Shown: positions 2,604-9,848 of the stretch, one piece after another
Numbering within the stretch: position 1 is the stretch's first letter
Layout: every line of letters starts with the position of its first letter
Virus record (IMG/VR): IMGVR_UViG_2579779007_000009
Coordinates: 1 to 32,407 of that record
Reading direction: 5' to 3' (one strand)
Source: a virus
Taxonomy: Duplodnaviria > Heunggongvirae > Uroviricota > Caudoviricetes
Length of the DNA stretch: 32,407 nt
Translations under genes and position numbers: made by a program
The notes under the pieces: generated by a model
The model's database searches: none
What the model saw: the letters and a program-made list of their open reading frames with translations, nothing else
What the model was told of the DNA's origin: nothing

Positions 2604-2828
2604 ATGCATACAGTTTCTGAAAATCAGTGCGGTAAATACGCATTACTGCTGCAACAGGCCAGAACCGAAGCACAGGCCGACGCAGCGACGCGCTTTTCTT
2701 CTCATCTTGACGCCATGATTCGCCACATCACAAAGGCGGAGTTATCCCGCGTGGAGATAGTCGAGCTGCTCAGTCAGGAGTCGGAAAAATTTCACAATAT
2801 CGGATTGTCTCGCGGGGAGGTGCTTTGA
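2604..2828 (+). CDS. Small early hypothetical protein (position of P2 orf80), 74 aa
   Basis: ATG 2604 preceded by GGAGAAAG; the listed ORF begins at a TTG at 2571 with no ribosome-binding site. Confidence 0.6.
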
Positions 2829-3130
2829 TGTCCTGTTCTCGTTCAGTTGTATTACTGAATAACGCCTTAAAAATCGCCGTTATGAAAAATGGCGATTTAT
2901 CTCTTATTCAACTTGGTCTTGATAAAGAAAAACGCGAAATAACTGAGTCTGTTATCGCGATTTATCAGAACGAATTAAATCTCCTGTCTGATGTGGTCAA
3001 TTTACTTGTTAAACGCGCTGTATTTCACAAGAAAATCTCCTCCGTGGATGAACTGACAAAATTAACGACAGAAATTGCCAGCTATTGCGCTGATGAATTT
3101 AAAAAACTTAACGACAAAAGGAGCTGGTAA
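2828..3130 (+). CDS. Small early hypothetical protein (position of P2 orf81), 100 aa
   Basis: ATG 2828 overlaps the upstream stop (TGATG); GGGGAGG upstream. Confidence 0.6.
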   Translation: MSCSRSVVLLNNALKIAVMKNGDLSLIQLGLDKEKREITESVIAIYQNELNLLSDVVNLLVKRAVFHKKISSVDELTKLTTEIASYCADEFKKLNDKRSW

Positions 3131-3354
3131 TGCCGGACAACGTAGATTTTATTCAGGAACAACAGGCTGAATTACTGGAGCGTCAGATTAACGCGGCAAG
3201 GGTAAAACATTGCGGTGCTTCTGCGCTGGTTTGCGAAGAGTGTGACGCGCCAATACCTGCTGCCCGTCGTGCGGCTTATCCGTCAGCCACGCGTTGTGTT
3301 TCCTGTCAGTCAGTCTTTGAAGCAAAAAACAAACATTACCGGAGAACGGCATGA
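3130..3354 (+). CDS. TraR/DksA-family C4 zinc-finger protein (position of P2 orf82), 74 aa
   Basis: Two Cys pairs, CEEC and CVSC, in the C-terminal half of a short protein; AGGAG upstream; start overlaps the upstream stop (TAATG). Confidence 0.7.
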   Translation: MPDNVDFIQEQQAELLERQINAARVKHCGASALVCEECDAPIPAARRAAYPSATRCVSCQSVFEAKNKHYRRTA

Positions 3355-3626
3355 GTATTCGTATTGAAATTGGCGAACGTTATGTCGTTACCAGTGACAG
3401 CTTTCAGTTTATTCTCCACGAGAAAAAGAGAGCGGAAAGCGGTAAAAACGCCGGTCAGGAATGGCTGGCGGTGGTTGGTTATTACCCGAAATTAAGCCAG
3501 CTCGTTTCCGGCCTGATGCATCACGATATTCTGACCGGAAGCGCAAAATCTTTTGCTGATTTAAACGCGCAGGTTGAGCAACTCAGCAAGCGTTGTTCAG
3601 AGGCTTTTGGCTCACATGGACGTTAA
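3351..3626 (+). CDS. Small early hypothetical protein (position of P2 orf83), 91 aa
   Basis: ATG 3351 overlaps the upstream stop (ATGA); GGAGAA upstream. Confidence 0.6.
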   Translation: MSIRIEIGERYVVTSDSFQFILHEKKRAESGKNAGQEWLAVVGYYPKLSQLVSGLMHHDILTGSAKSFADLNAQVEQLSKRCSEAFGSHGR

Positions 3627-5904
3627 AGCCTCCGGGCGTTTTGTCCCTCCGTCAGCATTTGCCGCAGGCACCGGTAAGACGTTTACCGGTGCTTATGCAT
3701 GGAACGCGCCACGCGAGGCCGTCGGGCGCGAAAGACCCCTTACACGTGACGAGATGCGTCAGGTGCAAGGTGTTTTATCCACGATTAACCGCCTGCCTTA
3801 CTTTTTGCGTTCGCTGTTTACTTCACGCTATGACTACATCCGGCGCAATAAAAGCCCGGTGCACGGGTTTTATTTCCTCACATCCACTTTTCAGCGTCGT
3901 TTATGGCCGCGCATTGAGCGCGTGAATCAGCGCCATGAAATGAACACCGACGCGTCGTTGCTGTTTCTGGCAGAGCGTGACCACTATGCGCGCCTGCCTG
4001 GAATGAATGACAAGGAGCTGAAAAAGTTTGCCGCCCGTATCTCATCGCAGCTTTTCATGATGTATGAGGAACTCTGCGATGCATGGGTTGATGCGCATGG
4101 TGAAAAAGAATCGCTGTTTACGGATGAGGCGCAGGCTCACCTGTATGGTCATGTTGCTGGCGCTGCACGTGCTTTCAATATTTCCCCGCTCTACTGGAAA
4201 AAATACAGTAAAGGACAGATGACCACGAGGCAGGCATATTCTGCCATTGCCCGTCTGTTTAACGATGAGTGGTGGATTAGTCAGCTTAAAGGCCAGCGTA
4301 TGCGCTGGCATGAGGCGTTACTGATTGCTGTCGGGGAGGTCAATAAAGACCGTTCTCCTTATGCCAGTAAACATGCCATTCGTGATGTGCGTGCGCGCCG
4401 CCAGGCAAATCTGGAATTTCTTAAATCGTGTGACCTTGAAAACAGGGAAACCGGCGAGCGCATCGACCTTATCAGTAAGGTGATGGGCAGTATTTCTAAT
4501 CCAGAAATTCGCCGGATGGAGCTGATGAACACCATTGCCGGTATTGAGCGTTACGCCGCCGCAGAGGGTGATTTGGGGATGTTTATCACGCTGACCGCGC
4601 CGTCAAAGTATCACCCGACACGTCAGGTCGGAAAAGGCGAAAGTAAAACCGTTCAGCTTAATCACGGCTGGAACGATGAGGCATTTAATCCAAAGGATGC
4701 GCAGCGTTATCTCTGCCGTATCTGGAGCCTGATGCGCACGGCATTCAAGGATAATGATTTACAGGTCTACGGTTTGCGTGTCGTCGAGCCACACCACGAC
4801 GGAACGCCGCACTGGCATATGATGCTTTTTTGTCATCCACGCCAGCGTAACCAGATTATCGAAATCATGCGTCGCTATGCGCTCAAAGAGGATGGCGACG
4901 AAAGAGGAGCCGCGCGAAACCGTTTTCAGGCAAAACACCTTAACCGGGGCGGTGCTGCGGGGTATATCGCGAAATACATCTCAAAAAATATCGACGGCTA
5001 TGCACTGGATGGGCAGCTCGATAACGATACCGGCAGACCGCTGAAAGATACTGCCGCGGCTGTTACCGCATGGGCGTCAACGTGGCGCATTCCGCAATTT
5101 AAAACGGTTGGCCTGCCGACAATGGGGGCTTACCGTGAACTACGCAAATTGCCTCGCGGCGTCAGCATTGCTGATGAGTTTGACGAGCGCGTCGAGGCTG
5201 CACGCGCCGCCGCAGACAGTGGTGATTTTGCGCTGTATATCAGCGCGCAGGGTGGGGCAAATGTCCCGCGCGATTGCCAGACTGTCAGGGTTGCCCGTAG
5301 CCCGTCGGATGACGTTAACGAGTACGAGGAAGAAGTCGAGAGAGTGGTCGGCATTTACGCGCCGCATCTCGGCGCGCGTCATATTCATATCACCAGAACG
5401 ACGGACTGGCGCATTGTTCCGAAAGTGCCGGTCGTTGAGCCTTTGACTTTAAAAAGCGGCATCGCCGCGCCTCGGAGTCCTGTCAATAACTGTGGAAAGC
5501 CTGCCAGCAGTGATACTTCGTTACTGGCTCCCACGCCTTCTGAACACGCCGCAGCAGTGCTTAATCTGGTAGATGACGGTGTTATCGAATGGAATGACCC
5601 GGAGGTCGTGAGGGCGCTAAGGGGCGCATTAAAACACGACCTGAGAACGCCAAATCGTCAGCAAAGAAACGGAAGCCCGTTAAAACCGCATGAGATAGCG
5701 CCATCGGCCAGACTGACTAGGTCGGAACGAATGCAAATTACCCGTATCCGCGTTGACCTCGCTCAGAACGGTATCAGGCCGCAGCGATGGGAGCTTGAGG
5801 CGCTGGCGCGTGGCGCGACGGTAAAGTTTGACGGACGAAAGTTTATATATCCAATAAGTGGTGAGTGGAAGCAGTTTTTTAGTGGCTTTGATCTTTTTAA
5901 GTAA
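3616..5904 (+). CDS. A: Replication initiation protein A (rolling-circle nicking endonuclease), 762 aa
   Basis: Long ORF trimmed to Met at 3616 (MDVKASGRFVPPSAFAAGTGK...); contains VVEPHHDGTPHWHMMLF and YIAKYISKNIDGY, recalled from P2 gpA. Confidence 0.92.
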   Translation: MDVKASGRFVPPSAFAAGTGKTFTGAYAWNAPREAVGRERPLTRDEMRQVQGVLSTINRLPYFLRSLFTSRYDYIRRNKSPVHGFYFLTSTFQRRLWPRIERVNQRHEMNTDASLLFLAERDHYARLPGMNDKELKKFAARISSQLFMMYEELCDAWVDAHGEKESLFTDEAQAHLYGHVAGAARAFNISPLYWKKYSKGQMTTRQAYSAIARLFNDEWWISQLKGQRMRWHEALLIAVGEVNKDRSPYASKHAIRDVRARRQANLEFLKSCDLENRETGERIDLISKVMGSISNPEIRRMELMNTIAGIERYAAAEGDLGMFITLTAPSKYHPTRQVGKGESKTVQLNHGWNDEAFNPKDAQRYLCRIWSLMRTAFKDNDLQVYGLRVVEPHHDGTPHWHMMLFCHPRQRNQIIEIMRRYALKEDGDERGAARNRFQAKHLNRGGAAGYIAKYISKNIDGYALDGQLDNDTGRPLKDTAAAVTAWASTWRIPQFKTVGLPTMGAYRELRKLPRGVSIADEFDERVEAARAAADSGDFALYISAQGGANVPRDCQTVRVARSPSDDVNEYEEEVERVVGIYAPHLGARHIHITRTTDWRIVPKVPVVEPLTLKSGIAAPRSPVNNCGKPASSDTSLLAPTPSEHAAAVLNLVDDGVIEWNDPEVVRALRGALKHDLRTPNRQQRNGSPLKPHEIAPSARLTRSERMQITRIRVDLAQNGIRPQRWELEALARGATVKFDGRKFIYPISGEWKQFFSGFDLFK

Positions 5905-6131
5905 TTGTCTTAGAATACCCACGTTACCGCTTGGGAAATCTACCTAGCAATGCTCTTAGTATTAGCTTTATACAAAGGGTATAAAGGCTGCCATTGGCAA
6001 CAATGGTGCCAGCATGGAGATAATCTCATGTTAAGGTTAGTGAATGTACGACAGTACAACCGCTACCGCTTTGGGCGCTGGGAGACGGTGCGTAAGCACC
6101 GTCGTTCTTACCCGAATCGGTAATATGCGGC

Positions 6132-8339
6132 CTAAGCGGTAACATTTACCTCTTCTTCACCCATCATTGTTAAGTAATGTTTCTCATCACCAGTCATTCT
6201 GAATATTTTGTGCAAGAGTTCTAAGTATTTCTCAGGTTCAATATCGCCCATATCTGTTATGTTTATTGCGTCGGAGTGAGAGCCTCTGTTTATATATCTG
6301 TAAAAGGCACGGAAATGGCTGTTATTTTCATCATTTGTTAATTCAGTAAGCTTTGCCTCTAATGCGTCAGTTCTATGAACAAATGCAAAGTAATACTCAA
6401 GTATATTTCTCATAATATTGGGGATTATTATTTTGTTGATTTTTTTCTCTTTTGCATCTTTTAATACTTGCCAAAGGGATTGGTATTCATTTTGCACACT
6501 TTTTTTATCTATAGCACTAATGGTGCTAAATTCATTTTTGTTTATTCTGCCAAGAAAGTAGTCACGTTTAAAATTTATTCCTTTTTTAGAGGCGAGTTTT
6601 ATTAACTCATGGAAGAAATAAAGATTATGGGTGAGGATTATTATTTTTGATGAAATGCCTTTTTCAATTATGTCATGATGGATCATGGATGCTATGTCGA
6701 AAACATAGTTTTGAGATAAACTTGATATAGGATCATCTATAACTATGAGTTTATCACGCATATCAGTATCATTTTCATTTGTTTTACCCTTGCAACATTC
6801 TAAAAAATATAGAAACGTTATTAATGTTTTTTCACCTTCGCTTAATGAGCGATATACATCTTGTTTTCTATTGTTTCCATCGCGGGATATTATATACTTA
6901 TCTTTGAGTTCGGCGTGTTTATCAATGCTAAAACCAGAGATGCCAAGAAATTTAAGTCGTGAGTTTATTGCATCTATTGTTGCATCTACACTTGATGTTT
7001 TATTTCTTAGTTCATTGATTTCATTTGTGTTGATCTCTTCTTTTCTTTTTATTTCCTGCATGAAGGATGCAGCGTTTTCATATTTTTCTTGAAAGTTTCT
7101 TTCGCAGTCTGATAGTATTTCAAATTCCGCGCCACATAAGTCTCTGATTGCTGCCCACATCTTTTCGCGAATATCTATTTCGCTATTATTAAATCTTTTT
7201 ACTTTGTCATTGAACTCGTTAATTTTATTGTTGTATTGTTCTATATCTTCTAATAGTTTTTCCTCTATCGACTTTTCAAACTCCAGCACAATGCTTATAG
7301 ATGGATTCTCTATTTTATTATCCAATAGTTTAATGTTTTTTTCTGCAATAGTTTCTAATGCCTTAACATATGAAAGACTTTTATCTTTTTCGTCTTGGTT
7401 TATCACCTCACATGATAAAATGTTACTCTTTATTTCTTCATGATGATTTTTAATGGCATTATCATAAGATAGTTTTATTTGTTGTATTTGATCTACTTTT
7501 CTTGAGTATGTTTCATCAAAGATAGATTCAATGGCTTTAATAAAATTATCATCTATTGTGTCCCTTTGGCAAAATGGACAAATTTCTCCATTTAAATATA
7601 GCTCTTTGCCTTGTTTAATCCAATCAATATTTTGTAGCTCTTTTATTGCTTCAGATAAATAGCTGTTGCTAGAGTCAATAATTGGTGTGGATAATGTTTT
7701 TTGAGTTTCTTCAGATAAAACATATCCTTTATAAGGAGTTATCAGAGGTATTTCTTTTCCTTTAAACTCGAGAAGTTTGCTATAAGATTGTATTAATGAT
7801 TTTATATCAATATCAGTTTGTGGAGTATACTTTTTTAGATGGTAATAGAAAGTGGCTTTGCTTCCTATTTGACCTTTCATTAATTGTTTTAATTCTGAAC
7901 TTCTTATGTCTTTGGTCTTATTCCATATGGAATTTATGCATTCTTGCTCTTTTTTGTTTTTCGCTTCATGGAGTTTTTCGATAAATTCTTTTTTTTCTTT
8001 ATGCTGATGTGCTAGTGATTTGTTTAGCTCTTCTTTTTCAGATAGTATTTTTTCAATTTCTGCATTTTTTTGACTGAGGGTAAATATACCTTTTTGCTCT
8101 TTTGCATTATAAAAATTATCTTCTATATATTTTGAGTTGTAGACTAGGGTTCGATAATTATCGATGGGTTCGCATACACATTCCTTATAGGCGGTGTCTT
8201 TAGGATTGTAAAAATAATTTGATATGGTAGATTTTCCACAACCATTTTGTCCATACAATATGTTTATTTTTTTGGATAAATCTAACTCAGTAAAATATTC
8301 TTTATGATAGCTTGTTACGTTTTTGAGTTTTAATTTCAT
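6132..8339 (-). CDS. Cargo ABC/AAA_13-type ATPase with CxxC motif, RloC/PrrC-like candidate abortive-infection protein, 735 aa
   Basis: Walker A GQNGCGKST near the N-terminus; long charged/heptad-like insert containing CPFC; LSEGEK signature-like motif; Walker B LIVIDDP; LTHN; C-terminal RNILE plus downstream His; strongly AT-rich; AGAGGG ribosome-binding site. Confidence 0.7.
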   Translation of the reverse strand: MKLKLKNVTSYHKEYFTELDLSKKINILYGQNGCGKSTISNYFYNPKDTAYKECVCEPIDNYRTLVYNSKYIEDNFYNAKEQKGIFTLSQKNAEIEKILSEKEELNKSLAHQHKEKKEFIEKLHEAKNKKEQECINSIWNKTKDIRSSELKQLMKGQIGSKATFYYHLKKYTPQTDIDIKSLIQSYSKLLEFKGKEIPLITPYKGYVLSEETQKTLSTPIIDSSNSYLSEAIKELQNIDWIKQGKELYLNGEICPFCQRDTIDDNFIKAIESIFDETYSRKVDQIQQIKLSYDNAIKNHHEEIKSNILSCEVINQDEKDKSLSYVKALETIAEKNIKLLDNKIENPSISIVLEFEKSIEEKLLEDIEQYNNKINEFNDKVKRFNNSEIDIREKMWAAIRDLCGAEFEILSDCERNFQEKYENAASFMQEIKRKEEINTNEINELRNKTSSVDATIDAINSRLKFLGISGFSIDKHAELKDKYIISRDGNNRKQDVYRSLSEGEKTLITFLYFLECCKGKTNENDTDMRDKLIVIDDPISSLSQNYVFDIASMIHHDIIEKGISSKIIILTHNLYFFHELIKLASKKGINFKRDYFLGRINKNEFSTISAIDKKSVQNEYQSLWQVLKDAKEKKINKIIIPNIMRNILEYYFAFVHRTDALEAKLTELTNDENNSHFRAFYRYINRGSHSDAINITDMGDIEPEKYLELLHKIFRMTGDEKHYLTMMGEEEVNVTA

Positions 8340-8625
8340 TTTATCCCTCTTTTTATTCTTTTTATATTTAGCCTTAAGTGTTCGAGGTTGCCTTCCTCAA
8401 CGATAGAGATCTAACCTAACTTTTTGATTTATTCAAGAGAATTTAGTGAGTTATATGTAAAGATGTGGATGCTTAGCTATGTGGTTGGGGGTTATTTCAG
8501 TATGAATTCATTTGATGCATCATTTTGCATGTACCTGTTAGGCATTTTCTAACTTTGCAGTGTCAGAACTGGCGTACTTTAGGCCATTCATGCAAGTGCA
8601 TTAAAACCGCCCCGTGAAGCGGGCG

Positions 8626-8644
8626 GGCGAGGCGGGGAAAGCAC
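8626..8644. other. cos cohesive-end site (19 nt, GGCGAGGCGGGGAAAGCAC)
   Basis: Exact match to the recalled P2 cohesive-end sequence, located upstream of Q where the P2 genome termini lie; coordinates hand-counted, possibly off by 1. Confidence 0.75.
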
Positions 8645-8813: not shown

Positions 8814-9848
8814 TCAGCCGTTGTCAGTGTCCAGTGAGTAGTTTTTAAAGCGGATGACCTCCTGACCGAGCCAGCCGTTTATTTCCCGAATTCTGTCCTG
8901 TAACGGGATAAGCTCATTGCGGACAAAGACCTTTGCCACTTTCTCAATATCGCCCAGCGACCCGACGTTTTCCGGCTTGCCACCCATCAACTGAAAGGGG
9001 ATGCGGTGCGCGTCAAGCAGGTCAGCGGCGCTGGCTTTTTTGATATTAAAAAAATCGTCCTTCGTTGCCACTTCACTGAGCGGGATAATTTTAATGCCGT
9101 CGGATTTCCCCTGCGGGGCATAGAGAAACAGGTTTTTAAAGTTGTTGCGGCCTTTCGACTTCACCATGTTTTCGCGAAGCATTTCGATATCGTTGCGATC
9201 CTGCACGGCATCAGTAACGTACATGATGTATCCGGCATGTGCGCCGTTTTCGTAATACTTGCGGCGGAACAGCGTGGCCGACTCATTCAGCCAGGCAGAG
9301 TTAAGGGCGCTGAGATATTCCGGCAGGCCGTACAGCTCCTGATTAATATCCGGCTCCAGCAGGTGAAACACGGAGCCGGGCGTGAAAGGTGTCGGCTCGT
9401 TGAAGGACGGCACCCACCAGTAAACATCCTCCTCCACCCCACGGCGGGTATATTTTGCCGGCGAGGTTTCCAGTCTGATGACCTTACCGGTGGTGCTGTA
9501 ACGCTTTTCCAGAAACGCATTACCGAACACCAGAAAATCCAGCACAAAGCGGCTGAAATCCTGCTGGGAAAGCCACGGGTGCGGAATAAACGTTGAAGCC
9601 AGAATATTACGTTTGACGTAAATCGGTGAGCTGTGATGTACGGCAGCACGCAGGCTTTTTGCCAGACCGGTAAAGCTGACCGGTGGCTCATACCATCTGC
9701 CGTTACTGATGCACTCGACGTAATCCAGAATGTCACGGCGGTCGAGTACCGGCACCGGCTCACCAAAGGTGAATGCCTCCATTTTCGGGGCGCTGGCGGT
9801 CATTGTTTTCACCGCTGGCTGCGGTGTTTTCCCTTTTTTCTTGCTCAT
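8814..9848 (-). CDS. Q: Portal protein Q, 344 aa
   Basis: Full-length ORF whose translation matches recalled P2 gpQ; start overlaps the P stop (ATGA). Confidence 0.92.
   Translation of the reverse strand: MSKKKGKTPQPAVKTMTASAPKMEAFTFGEPVPVLDRRDILDYVECISNGRWYEPPVSFTGLAKSLRAAVHHSSPIYVKRNILASTFIPHPWLSQQDFSRFVLDFLVFGNAFLEKRYSTTGKVIRLETSPAKYTRRGVEEDVYWWVPSFNEPTPFTPGSVFHLLEPDINQELYGLPEYLSALNSAWLNESATLFRRKYYENGAHAGYIMYVTDAVQDRNDIEMLRENMVKSKGRNNFKNLFLYAPQGKSDGIKIIPLSEVATKDDFFNIKKASAADLLDAHRIPFQLMGGKPENVGSLGDIEKVAKVFVRNELIPLQDRIREINGWLGQEVIRFKNYSLDTDNG

Follow-up and report, generated by a model that had tools for sequence, protein, structure and literature searches.

The cargo carried between replication gene A and the cos site of a P2-like prophage encodes a member of the RloC family, as judged from its sequence and predicted fold, and it is probably not a single-gene cargo, since a structured RNA with a conserved 31-aa open reading frame (ORF) adjoins the large gene and would form its second part. 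The best explanation of the whole, to which we give a probability of about 0.7 on sequence, structural modeling, and analogy, is a putative RloC-family anticodon nuclease with a separately transcribed RNA/peptide, serving to abort infection.

Within the window (the whole 32,407-nt stretch of viral DNA that was analyzed), a 735-aa ORF on the minus strand (6132..8339; RefSeq WP_028132552.1, "AAA family ATPase"; PHROG 2801) takes up the interval from P2 gene A to cos, just where an earlier note on this DNA had placed it. The ORF starts with ATG, 5 nt downstream of the ribosome-binding site (RBS) GAGGG (8345-8349). Both landmarks of the locus lie outside the cargo: on the left, P2 replication gene A (3574..5904, plus strand), annotated as "replication endonuclease" in an identical record, and on the right, the P2 cos sequence GGCGAGGCGGGGAAAGCAC (8626-8644, plus strand), an exact match with 0 expected by chance, beyond which lies the portal gene (8814..9848, minus strand). 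The AT-richness remarked on in the note is borne out by a GC content of 0.27-0.32 over positions 6201-8600, compared to 0.50-0.59 in gene A and the portal/terminase genes, and an open frame of 2.2 kb in DNA so AT-rich is far beyond chance. An AT-rich region 5' of the ATPase gene (8340..8585, minus strand) also belongs to the cargo; a consensus promoter scan upstream of the gene found no promoter. The window is 100% identical over the ATPase gene to the P2-like prophage adjoining yegR in Escherichia coli STW0522-31 (NZ_AP022409.1). Likeness to other P2-like phages ends near the end of gene A and restarts at ~8586-8592, and three divergent alleles (58-64% identity) occupy the identical spot in other prophages.

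Profile searches assign the protein to the Pfam family AAA_13 over its full length (aa 16-713 against positions 9-712 of the 713-position profile; 349.5 bits, cut-off of 36). Every PADLOC model of PDC-S06 matches it, PDLC04886 with 844.6 bits over aa 2-728, and the PADLOC PrrC model covers its C-terminal half (aa 434-716, E 5.7e-16). Among the aligned homologs, all 29 match PDC-S06 and 24 match PrrC, and JGI gives the name "wobble nucleotide-excising tRNase" to two homologs with 28-31% identity. The NCBIfam search of the protein gave no specific model, neither TOPRIM nor an OLD family appeared in its Pfam, PADLOC, and NCBIfam results, and sequence searches against solved structures, queried with the full-length protein and with a C-terminal domain profile, returned nothing useful.

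Every motif that had been read from the translation is in place, namely, GQNGCGKS (aa 30-37), CPFC (aa 254-257), LSEGE (aa 499-503), LIVIDD (aa 531-536), LTHN (aa 569-572), and RNILE (aa 644-648), and their core residues are conserved in an alignment of 29 sequences that extends down to 18% identity and reaches RloC-type proteins of ~800 aa. In the Walker A/P-loop motif GQNGCGKST (aa 30-38; 8226..8252, minus strand), located by motif position and alignment, G30, N32, G35, K36, and T38 are invariant. The ABC signature LSEGEK (aa 499-504) and the Walker B/D-loop LIVIDDPISS (aa 531-540), together spanning 6720..6845 on the minus strand, keep L499-E503, I534-P537, S539, and S540 without exception; in the switch/linchpin histidine motif LTHN (6624..6635, minus strand), H571 is invariant and T570 and N572 are nearly so. 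The candidate zinc-hook motif CPFC (7569..7580, minus strand) sits inside a helical insert (aa ~91-448), with C254 and C257 invariant along with W240 and G244, and further invariant columns are N459, L462, G466, Y511, F512, and F575. The nuclease-like C-terminal domain (aa 586-735; 6135..6584, minus strand) contains R644 and E648 of RNILE (nt 6396-6410) and S687-H688 (nt 6276-6281). The note had read a histidine 27 or 40 residues after RNILE; H675 and H688 are both there, and only H688 is invariant, as are R644 and E648, while S687 just before it is nearly invariant.

The spacing of these residues, R644-X3-E648-X39-S687-H688, conforms to the published RloC signature, a C-proximal Arg-X3-Glu-X36-52-His with Ser often before the His (Davidov & Kaufmann 2008, PMC2610378). 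The protein also has all the ABC-ATPase motifs and, between Walker A and the signature, a CxxC-bearing insert, a predicted zinc hook. RloC proteins span 658-897 aa and are usually unlinked to a type I/III restriction-modification locus (PMC2610378); the present protein falls within this range at 735 aa and has no linked restriction-modification genes. The residues mutagenized in Geobacillus kaustophilus RloC are K44, C291, D572, R692, E696, and H737 (PMC2610378, PMC3458546), and K44/C291/D572/E696/H737 are nearly co-linear in order and spacing with K36/C254/D535/E648/H688 here. The domain order (ABC ATPase head, helical CxxC insert, and C-terminal nuclease domain with Arg-X3-Glu...Ser-His) is shared with the RloC proteins studied in G. 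kaustophilus and Acinetobacter baylyi (Davidov & Kaufmann 2008, Klaiman 2012, 2013), but the present protein is ~70 residues shorter and belongs to a temperate phage, where its gene occupies a defined hotspot. The link to these studied proteins is an indirect one, through common Pfam and PADLOC models and the alignment with homologs of ~800 aa. PrrC of E. coli likewise combines an ABC ATPase N-region with a C-terminal Arg/Glu/His triad, yet it is ~400 aa long, lacks the coiled-coil/CxxC insert, and always lies within a type Ic restriction-modification locus, by which it is silenced. The 735-aa protein differs on all these points: it has an insert of ~430 aa, and its gene is flanked by P2 gene A and the portal gene, with no hsd genes nearby.

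The whole-protein AlphaFold model (pLDDT of 81.5, long helices) shows an ATPase head split by a mostly helical insert of about 430 residues that holds the invariant CxxC. A plain coiled coil of two helices does not describe this insert: the CxxC is located in a non-helical stretch (aa 250-263), after a region of mixed structure (aa 142-263), and not at a tip where two long helices meet. Among solved structures, the whole model is closest in fold to Rad50, SMC heads, AriA, LmuB, and PtuA. A CxxC in a helical insert of an ABC ATPase is common to Rad50, SbcC, and Lamassu LmuB, but these proteins have no fused RNase domain and work with separate nucleases on DNA. A function outside defense, either SMC/Rad50-like DNA maintenance or a prophage replication/induction factor, would fit the closeness of the model to DNA-repair ATPases, and the study of A. 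baylyi RloC discusses a role against induction of the resident prophage (PMC3874168). We consider such a function very improbable, because the C-terminal domain lacks a counterpart in Rad50 and SbcC (PMC2610378), the gene lies in an accessory hotspot of variable content and is missing from most P2-like phages, and homologs reside in defense-type neighborhoods, those in Pseudomonas adjoining AbiH and DUF3732 genes.

The C-terminal domain is modeled as helical, and its best solved match is the HEPN protein Csx1, weakly, with other HEPN proteins lower. For the HEPN pattern R-x4-6-H, R681-x6-H688 occurs in this protein, but R681 is replaced in several homologs, whereas H688 is invariant. The protein might instead be an AAA_13-family HEPN RNase other than an RloC-type anticodon nuclease, with another RNA target (mRNA, rRNA, or tRNA sites) or a cue other than DNA ends. 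Its identity to RloC-type proteins of ~800 aa is only 18-21% (the aligned set includes an Acinetobacter pittii protein), HEPN RNases have many types of targets (PMC3710099), and the insert architecture is unlike a plain Rad50 hook. Such an activity nevertheless seems unlikely, given that in its catalytic residues, in how these are spaced, and in all of its ATPase motifs the protein agrees with RloC and PrrC, two enzymes that cut anticodon loops (PMC2610378). The RloC-like tRNase or related AAA_13 defense ATPase proposed in the earlier note is supported by both the sequence and the predicted fold.

Another ABC-ATPase sensor fused to a nuclease, P2 Old, also occupies the position between gene A and cos, and a 2026 preprint (10.64898/2026.07.10.737580) describes it as a tRNase that acts abortively and is triggered by DNA substrates. 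Its effector is a TOPRIM domain and it has no CxxC insert, whereas the C-terminal domain here is helical and HEPN-like, and the two proteins show no sequence relationship beyond the ATPase head. The combination of ABC ATPase and TOPRIM nuclease that defines the OLD family is not found in the present protein.

An RloC-like gene at the P2 hotspot is already known and is not new. A single-gene "AAA_13, RloC-like" system is the fifth most frequent cargo of this hotspot (#5), with 420 occurrences (Rousset 2022), in a locus that holds over a thousand other gene arrangements (PMC9122126); it is absent among the systems cloned in that study. The 2013 survey of HEPN proteins (Anantharaman, PMC3710099) described an ABC-HEPN clade carried by prophages, with an APEC O1 protein, "APECO1_4465", as its type; we infer from genome position that this protein is WP_000423308.1. 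Family, locus, and a single large gene are shared with Rousset #5, PADLOC PDC-S06, and the APECO1_4465 clade, and the present gene is another allele: the APEC O1 prophage gene at the hotspot is 58% identical to it, and the representative of Rousset 2022, for which 399 residues are listed, aligns at 47% over that length. All three catalogues treat the system as a single gene and report no activity assay, and its status in PADLOC is that of a candidate only.

Adjoining the ATPase gene is an unannotated structured RNA of ~221 nt (5923..6143, plus strand), delineated by RNAfold and covariation, an accompaniment of this subclade that is undescribed for RloC. Its closing stem of 13 bp pairs a 5' arm, GTTACCGCTTGGG (5923-5935), with a 3' arm, CCTAAGCGGTAAC (6131-6143), which runs across the final V-T-A codons and the stop codon of the ATPase gene, encoded on the opposite strand. 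RNAfold gives -100.1 kcal/mol compared to -64.6 for shuffles (sd of 5.05; z of -7.04). Over 35 distinct sequences, 96.3% of cells are paired versus 36-47% when the pattern is slid, and 15 pairs change on both sides versus 6.9 in shuffles. Covariation supports the closing stem and a hairpin of the small RNA, and each of the 55 distinct copies next to an RloC-like gene has the stem arms. G-U pairs are numerous on the sense strand; because the opposite strand would have A-C mismatches at these places, they point to an RNA structure and to more than a mere DNA inverted repeat such as a recombination site or transposon end, although the stem may also act at the DNA level. No target-site duplication around the element is visible by eye. 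A consensus scan detected a promoter-like site for the small RNA (5888..5916, plus strand), consisting of TTGATC, a spacer of 17 nt, and TAGAAT. Four E. coli alleles share GCTTTGAT and TAGAAT without change, and a -10-like box stands at an equal position before the closing stem in other genera.

The consensus of Rfam RT-6, a motif near reverse-transcriptase genes, resembles the first hairpin of the small RNA, but membership was rejected: the score is 23.1 bits in the window and 19-20 in two other copies against a threshold of 46.7, and only one hairpin is involved. Nothing in an Rfam scan of the window reaches any threshold, no reverse transcriptase is annotated within 7 kb in the identical record, and RT-6 is not mentioned by name in the literature searched. 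An origin of the 227-nt stretch in the P2 backbone was also rejected, as it occurs in just 60 of 5,426 E. coli genomes and one phage-collection record and is also found with the gene outside P2 prophages.

The RNA contains a small ORF of 31 aa, MLRLVNVRQYNRYRFGRWETVRKHRRSYPNR (6028..6123, plus strand), with GGAG 8 nt upstream of its ATG. The earlier statement that the large gene has no partner ORF of at least 60 aa holds literally, the largest being 57 aa (5950..6123), but this threshold hid the conserved 31-aa ORF in the structured RNA and thereby makes the single-gene description doubtful. The 57-aa frame itself was rejected as a gene, because the other three aligned E. coli alleles lack its start and have a stop in its frame. 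The 31-aa ORF is intact, with GGAG spacing unchanged, in E. coli, an Enterobacter phage, Pseudomonas, and Celerinatantimonas. It bears a coding signature: variable sites by codon position number 13/11/24 over 28 codons, and E. coli and P. caspiana differ by 13 synonymous and 6 non-synonymous codons. The peptide matches PHROG 21154, a family of unknown function (E 1.5e-9), and Pfam and NCBIfam searches with it gave no match. By direct reading, it is basic and Arg-rich (Arg/Lys 10 of 31) with no hydrophobic stretch.

In 70 loci the element adjoins an RloC-like gene, in convergent (37), co-directional downstream (31), or divergent (2) orientation, and it lies next to the 3' end of the ATPase gene in 68 of them. 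A search of viral contigs with a pattern built on the RNA only gave 29 matches, of which 8 were rejected as chance because the rest of the element is missing; the ATPase gene is present with all 21 genuine ones. The element accompanies the gene beyond P2 prophages, in the defense-type neighborhoods of Pseudomonas, it occurs with the commonest allele of Rousset 2022, and it remains 84-89% identical between prophages whose ATPase proteins share just 58-64%. Together with the promoter-like site and RBS of its own, these observations would fit a two-component system in which the RNA and/or the Arg-rich peptide would control the anticodon nuclease, be it as a labile silencer lost when a phage shuts off host expression, an activator, an RNA/tRNA-binding adaptor, or an enzyme binder. 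We hold this only tentatively, however, since the element, sought with a peptide profile beside 80 more distant homologs, was undetected at 76, so that it is dispensable for the family at large, and its changing orientation speaks against coupling through an operon or antisense RNA. In two loci (L018 and L109), moreover, the small ORF is kept beside an apparently disrupted ATPase gene, and diverged peptides lie without an RloC-like gene beside unrelated genes (pyocin, HATPase_c_3, Abi_2, and transposases) and downstream of cI in Stx2 phages.

The same scatter of PHROG 21154 peptides over varied mobile contexts would suit an independent passenger, either a selfish/addiction-type small gene or a phage accessory gene, with the nuclease working alone. 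So would the GC content of the element (~0.45-0.49), unlike that of the ATPase gene (~0.3), and its fold: a closing stem between 5' and 3' ends and a start codon and RBS buried in a hairpin, as predicted by RNAfold, recall the translationally inert fold-back mRNAs of hok-type and other type I toxins. We regard an independent passenger as rather doubtful. The strongly basic peptide is not hydrophobic, unlike typical type I toxins, no overlapping antisense RNA partner is evident, and orientation to the neighbor varies, so the element does not have the features of a type I toxin-antitoxin system; furthermore, the five E. coli prophages with the element that were inspected all have an adjoining RloC-like gene, at a hotspot with more than a thousand other gene arrangements.

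How a putative RloC-family nuclease with its RNA/peptide would abort infection can be sketched by analogy with the RloC proteins of G. kaustophilus and A. baylyi, for which an antiviral role was proposed rather than demonstrated in the RloC papers. In the lysogen, the nuclease would be held silent by its own ATPase/zinc-hook region. A cue tied to foreign or broken DNA may then, through ATP binding or hydrolysis, switch the nuclease on; the active enzyme would cut tRNA anticodon loops, translation would stop, and the infection would be aborted, which would protect the lysogen population and the prophage. The small RNA/peptide, as a best guess, would modulate or silence the nuclease.

The large gene by itself is ordinary, another allele of a family already listed for the hotspot that defense-finding tools would flag. 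What is new is the conserved structured small-ORF RNA beside it, missed by annotation and by catalogues that record a single gene. The RloC proteins studied come from Geobacillus and Acinetobacter; a native, P2-borne relative from E. coli, in which the natural trigger and real antiviral value of RloC could be approached, suits standard coliphage panels and a comparison with P2 Old, which occupies the same slot. Should the small RNA regulate the nuclease, cloning the gene without it could give a misleading picture of toxicity or inactivity. If the two-component arrangement were true, it would represent a third mode of regulation, beside the restriction-enzyme partner of PrrC and the internal zinc-hook switch of RloC, and this clade would be mechanistically unlike both PrrC and classical RloC. 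It would also give a first function to a small-protein family of P2-like and Stx2 phages and Pseudomonas islands.

The 735-aa ORF described in the earlier note is present on the minus strand at 6132..8339, with an ATG start and a ribosome-binding site (GAGGG) 5 bases upstream of it. It lies between gene A and cos, as the note had placed it: gene A, a 776-aa replication-endonuclease ORF, forms the left flank (3574..5904), and the P2 cos sequence (8626-8644) and the portal gene (8814..9848) form the right flank. Likeness to other P2-like phages breaks off close to the gene A stop codon and restarts at about 8586-8592, placing the variable cargo at about 5905-8585. The extreme AT-richness claimed for the cargo is borne out by a GC content of 0.27 to 0.32 over the ATPase gene and its upstream region, compared to 0.50 to 0.59 in the flanking genes. 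The gene is 100% identical to a copy in a P2-like prophage of Escherichia coli STW0522-31, where its RefSeq name is "AAA family ATPase." On the strand that carries the portal/terminase operon, a terminator-like GC hairpin followed by TTTT (8607-8626, minus strand) abuts cos. Leftward transcripts would end there, short of the cargo, so that the ATPase gene would need its own promoter in 8340-8606; a consensus promoter scan of this interval found none for it.

Family models agree on the assignment of the 735-aa protein. Pfam AAA_13, the domain that the note had proposed to search for, spans it from end to end with 349.5 bits (cutoff of 36); the PADLOC candidate defense family PDC-S06 matches with 844.6 bits, PHROG 2801 (unknown function) with 1,150 bits, and the PADLOC PrrC model covers aa 434 to 716 with an E value of 5.7e-16. 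A sequence search of solved structures gave no relative. The database search returned 80 relatives, including enterobacterial proteins of 729 to 745 aa with 39 to 64% identity, a group at 28 to 31% identity in which two proteins carry the JGI name "wobble nucleotide-excising tRNase," and proteins of ~800 aa with ~20% identity. All 29 of the homologs that we aligned match PDC-S06 models and 24 match PrrC, indicating that the PADLOC candidate family is in effect the RloC/AAA_13 family. The alignment has 30 invariant columns, among them G30/N32/G35/K36/T38, W240/G244/C254/C257, L499 to E503, I534 to P537, S539, S540, H571, and R644/E648/H688, plus N459, L462, G466, Y511, F512, and F575; S687 is nearly invariant.

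How well does this protein fit RloC? The definition of RloC has four features, including ABC-ATPase motifs, a C-proximal Arg-X3-Glu-X36-52-His often with a Ser preceding the His, and a length of 658 to 897 aa (Davidov and Kaufmann, PMC2610378). All the motifs read from the translation in the note (Walker A, CPFC, LSEGEK, Walker B, LTHN, and RNILE) are found where it had put them, and the C-proximal motif reads R644-X3-E648-X39-S687-H688; at the level of sequence the protein has every feature of this definition. The note had offered a His either 27 or 40 residues after RNILE; of the two, it is the one at +40 (H688) that is conserved, and the invariant R644/E648/H688 fit the spacing of the RloC triad. 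In the Geobacillus kaustophilus RloC, mutagenesis showed that R692, E696, and H737 are required for nuclease activity and that C291G in the hook makes the enzyme hyperactive (Davidov and Kaufmann, PMC2610378), and its activation requires K44 and D572 (PMC3458546). The counterparts of these residues here are K36, C254, D535, R644, E648, and H688; their order is identical, and the distances between them are almost unchanged.

An AlphaFold model built on the 29-sequence alignment (mean pLDDT of 81.5) has long helices at aa 91 to 141 and 403 to 448 with a mostly helical region between them, and the CxxC lies in a nonhelical stretch (aa 250 to 263). The best matches of the model among solved structures are Rad50, SMC heads, PARIS AriA, Lamassu LmuB, and Septu PtuA. 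Modeled separately (pLDDT of 77.3), aa 586 to 735 form a beta hairpin followed by helices; PrrC/RloC nuclease domains have been placed in the HEPN superfamily (PMC3710099), with which this predicted fold agrees, weakly on its own. Overall, the predicted fold is compatible with RloC and, together with the family models and the conserved residues, supports the reading of the protein as an RloC-like tRNase or a related AAA_13 defense ATPase.

The family has been recorded at this locus before. Rousset et al. (2022) surveyed E. coli P2-like prophages at the locus between genes A and Q, and their system 5 (Table S5B) is one gene, "AAA_13," with 420 occurrences and the annotation "RloC-like" (PMC9122126); its sequence was not found in the part of their tables of cloned systems that was accessible. 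A 2013 HEPN survey described proteins combining an ABC ATPase with HEPN, "prototyped by APECO1_4465" of E. coli APEC O1, as frequent in integrated prophages (PMC3710099). The P2-like prophage of APEC O1 encodes at the same position a protein of 738 aa, sharing 58% identity with the 735-aa protein, which we infer to be this prototype. At the DNA level the gene is detectable in 31 of 5,426 complete E. coli genomes, and a 70%-identical allele occupies the same place in another P2-like prophage. Thus, the finding of the note is correct and not new: the ATPase gene adds one more allele to a family that had been catalogued here before and, for that reason, is of modest interest alone. The part worth following up is the conserved, structured, and unannotated RNA with a small ORF beside it.

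The 227 bases between the stop codons of gene A and the ATPase gene are present in 60 complete E. coli genomes and are 84 to 89% identical between prophages whose ATPase proteins are 58 to 64% identical. The small-RNA region (5888-6143, plus strand) is better conserved between prophages than the ATPase gene, and base composition is not shared, with a GC content of ~0.45 to 0.49 there versus ~0.3 in the adjacent gene. The stretch contains a conserved, Arg-rich ORF of 31 aa (6028..6123, plus strand; MLRLVNVRQYNRYRFGRWETVRKHRRSYPNR) with GGAG 8 bases before its ATG; a 57-aa ORF in the same stretch is not conserved and was rejected as a gene. Across 13 distinct copies of the small ORF, the third position varies in 24 of 28 codons, the first in 13, and the second in 11, and the E. 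coli and Pseudomonas caspiana copies differ by 13 synonymous and 6 nonsynonymous codons. The excess of third-position and of synonymous changes therefore indicates that the small ORF is under selection as a protein. The peptide matches PHROG 21154 (unknown function), and searches of Pfam and NCBIfam gave no match.

The same peptide and ribosome-binding site adjoin the closest nonenterobacterial relatives, in three Pseudomonas loci and in Celerinatantimonas. Two of the three Pseudomonas loci have AbiH and DUF3732 genes as neighbors, not a P2 prophage. In Pseudomonas sp. 1P02AnB (locus L007), the RloC-like gene and small ORF are followed immediately downstream by an AbiH-family gene (6605-7531, minus strand), which looks like a defense-island setting. 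The small RNA is tail-to-tail with the ATPase gene in the window and is also found beside RloC-like genes in Enterobacter phage ENT4. The cargo that the note calls single-gene is probably not so, given the conserved 31-aa ORF in a structured RNA next to the ATPase gene.

A promoter-like site (TTGATC, 17 nt, TAGAAT; 5888-5916, plus strand) found by consensus scan precedes the small RNA, and the other genera have a -10-like box in the corresponding position. The RNA, ~221 nt long, is closed by a stem whose 5' arm (GTTACCGCTTGGG, 5923-5935, plus strand) is complementary to a 3' arm (CCTAAGCGGTAAC, 6131-6143, plus strand) located just past the small ORF and overlapping, on the opposite strand, the stop codon and last three codons of the ATPase gene. 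Folding of the 229-nt stretch gives -100.1 kcal/mol compared to -64.6 (standard deviation, 5.05) for shuffles (z of -7.0), and its minimum-energy structure includes the closing stem and places the start codon and GGAG inside a hairpin. Among 35 distinct copies, 96.3% of consensus-structure cells pair, versus 36 to 47% with partners slid; 15 pairs changed on both sides, versus 6.9 in shuffles, a count that none of 500 shuffles reached, and covariation is seen in 7 of 12 closing-stem pairs and 5 of 9 pairs of the first hairpin. Arms of 8 to 16 bp occur in all 55 distinct copies beside RloC-like genes. The sense strand has many G-U pairs, and this favors an RNA structure over a repeat that acts purely at the DNA level. 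Membership in the Rfam family RT-6, an RNA motif that is known only near genes for reverse transcriptases, was rejected: the first hairpin alone (5964-6035, plus strand) scores 23.1 bits against a threshold of 46.7, and the annotation within 7 kb includes no reverse transcriptase. Similar subthreshold matches occur in the P. caspiana locus L032 (1105-1136, 20 bits) and in the comparison locus L089 (7458-7491, 19 bits). L032 also has a radC RNA motif (RF01754, 65.3 bits; 4313-4446, minus strand) ~3 kb from its RloC-like gene.

How far do the small RNA and the RloC-like gene go together? In viral contigs, an RNA-only pattern matched 29 loci, 8 of them by chance; the whole element is present in 21, and an RloC-like gene is beside it in all 21. 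In metagenomes, a coding pattern matched 89 loci, of which 82 have the peptide. The retrieved loci together contain 107 peptide copies: 70 beside an RloC-like gene (37 convergent, 31 codirectional downstream, and 2 divergent), 30 uninformative because a flank is short, and 7 without such a gene despite at least 2.5 kb on both sides. That the orientation varies speaks against coupling through an operon or antisense RNA and, if the nuclease is the target, for action in trans. Rousset's commonest allele carries the peptide; a search beside the 80 more distant homologs of the ATPase did not find it at 76 of them. In two loci the small ORF is intact beside an apparently interrupted ATPase gene: in Celerinatantimonas diazotrophica (L018, 3989-6183), which has a tRNA gene ~900 bp upstream (3020-3093), the RloC-like frame is split into 3989-4972 and 5167-6183, and in L109 (2572-4772) the match is in two pieces that overlap in the query, which suggests a frameshift.

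The peptides of those 7 copies and of other long loci are more diverged, with neighbors including S-type pyocin, HATPase_c_3, Abi_2, and transposases. In metagenome contigs without an RloC-like gene (L120, L124, L126, L135, L127, L170, and L176), Abi_2, an S-type pyocin DNase, HATPase_c_3 (MORC-like), IS1/IS1595 transposases, a resolvase, and an integrase are near the diverged peptides. A more distant member of 40 aa (H0092) is found in Stx2 phage VT2-Sakai (L205, AP000422.1, 3462-3584). In Stx2 phages it comes after cI in the pRM transcript, the place that rexAB occupies in lambda; the closing stem is absent from the VT2-Sakai locus, and the adjacent ORF (H0093, 2767-3288) encodes a 173-aa protein without a Pfam match. 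In summary, one gammaproteobacterial subclade of the RloC-like family has the small RNA and peptide as its lineage-specific companion, and the peptide is part of a wider small-protein family of mobile DNA.

Taken together, the observation of the note is confirmed and its RloC-like interpretation supported. By sequence the protein belongs to the family, it conserves all of the catalytic and regulatory residues, and its gene lies in a defense hotspot and has a companion RNA and peptide. By analogy with studied RloC proteins (PMC2610378, PMC3458546, PMC3874168), the nuclease would be silent in the lysogen, held by its own hook and ATPase; infection-linked DNA ends or damage would bring about its ATP-dependent activation, and the activated enzyme would cut anticodon loops and stop translation. 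Phage P2 itself carries Old in this slot, with an ABC ATPase joined to a nuclease different from the one here. According to a 2026 preprint, Old is a tRNase that acts by abortive infection and has DNA substrates as its trigger (10.64898/2026.07.10.737580). The hotspot would thus swap analogous devices.
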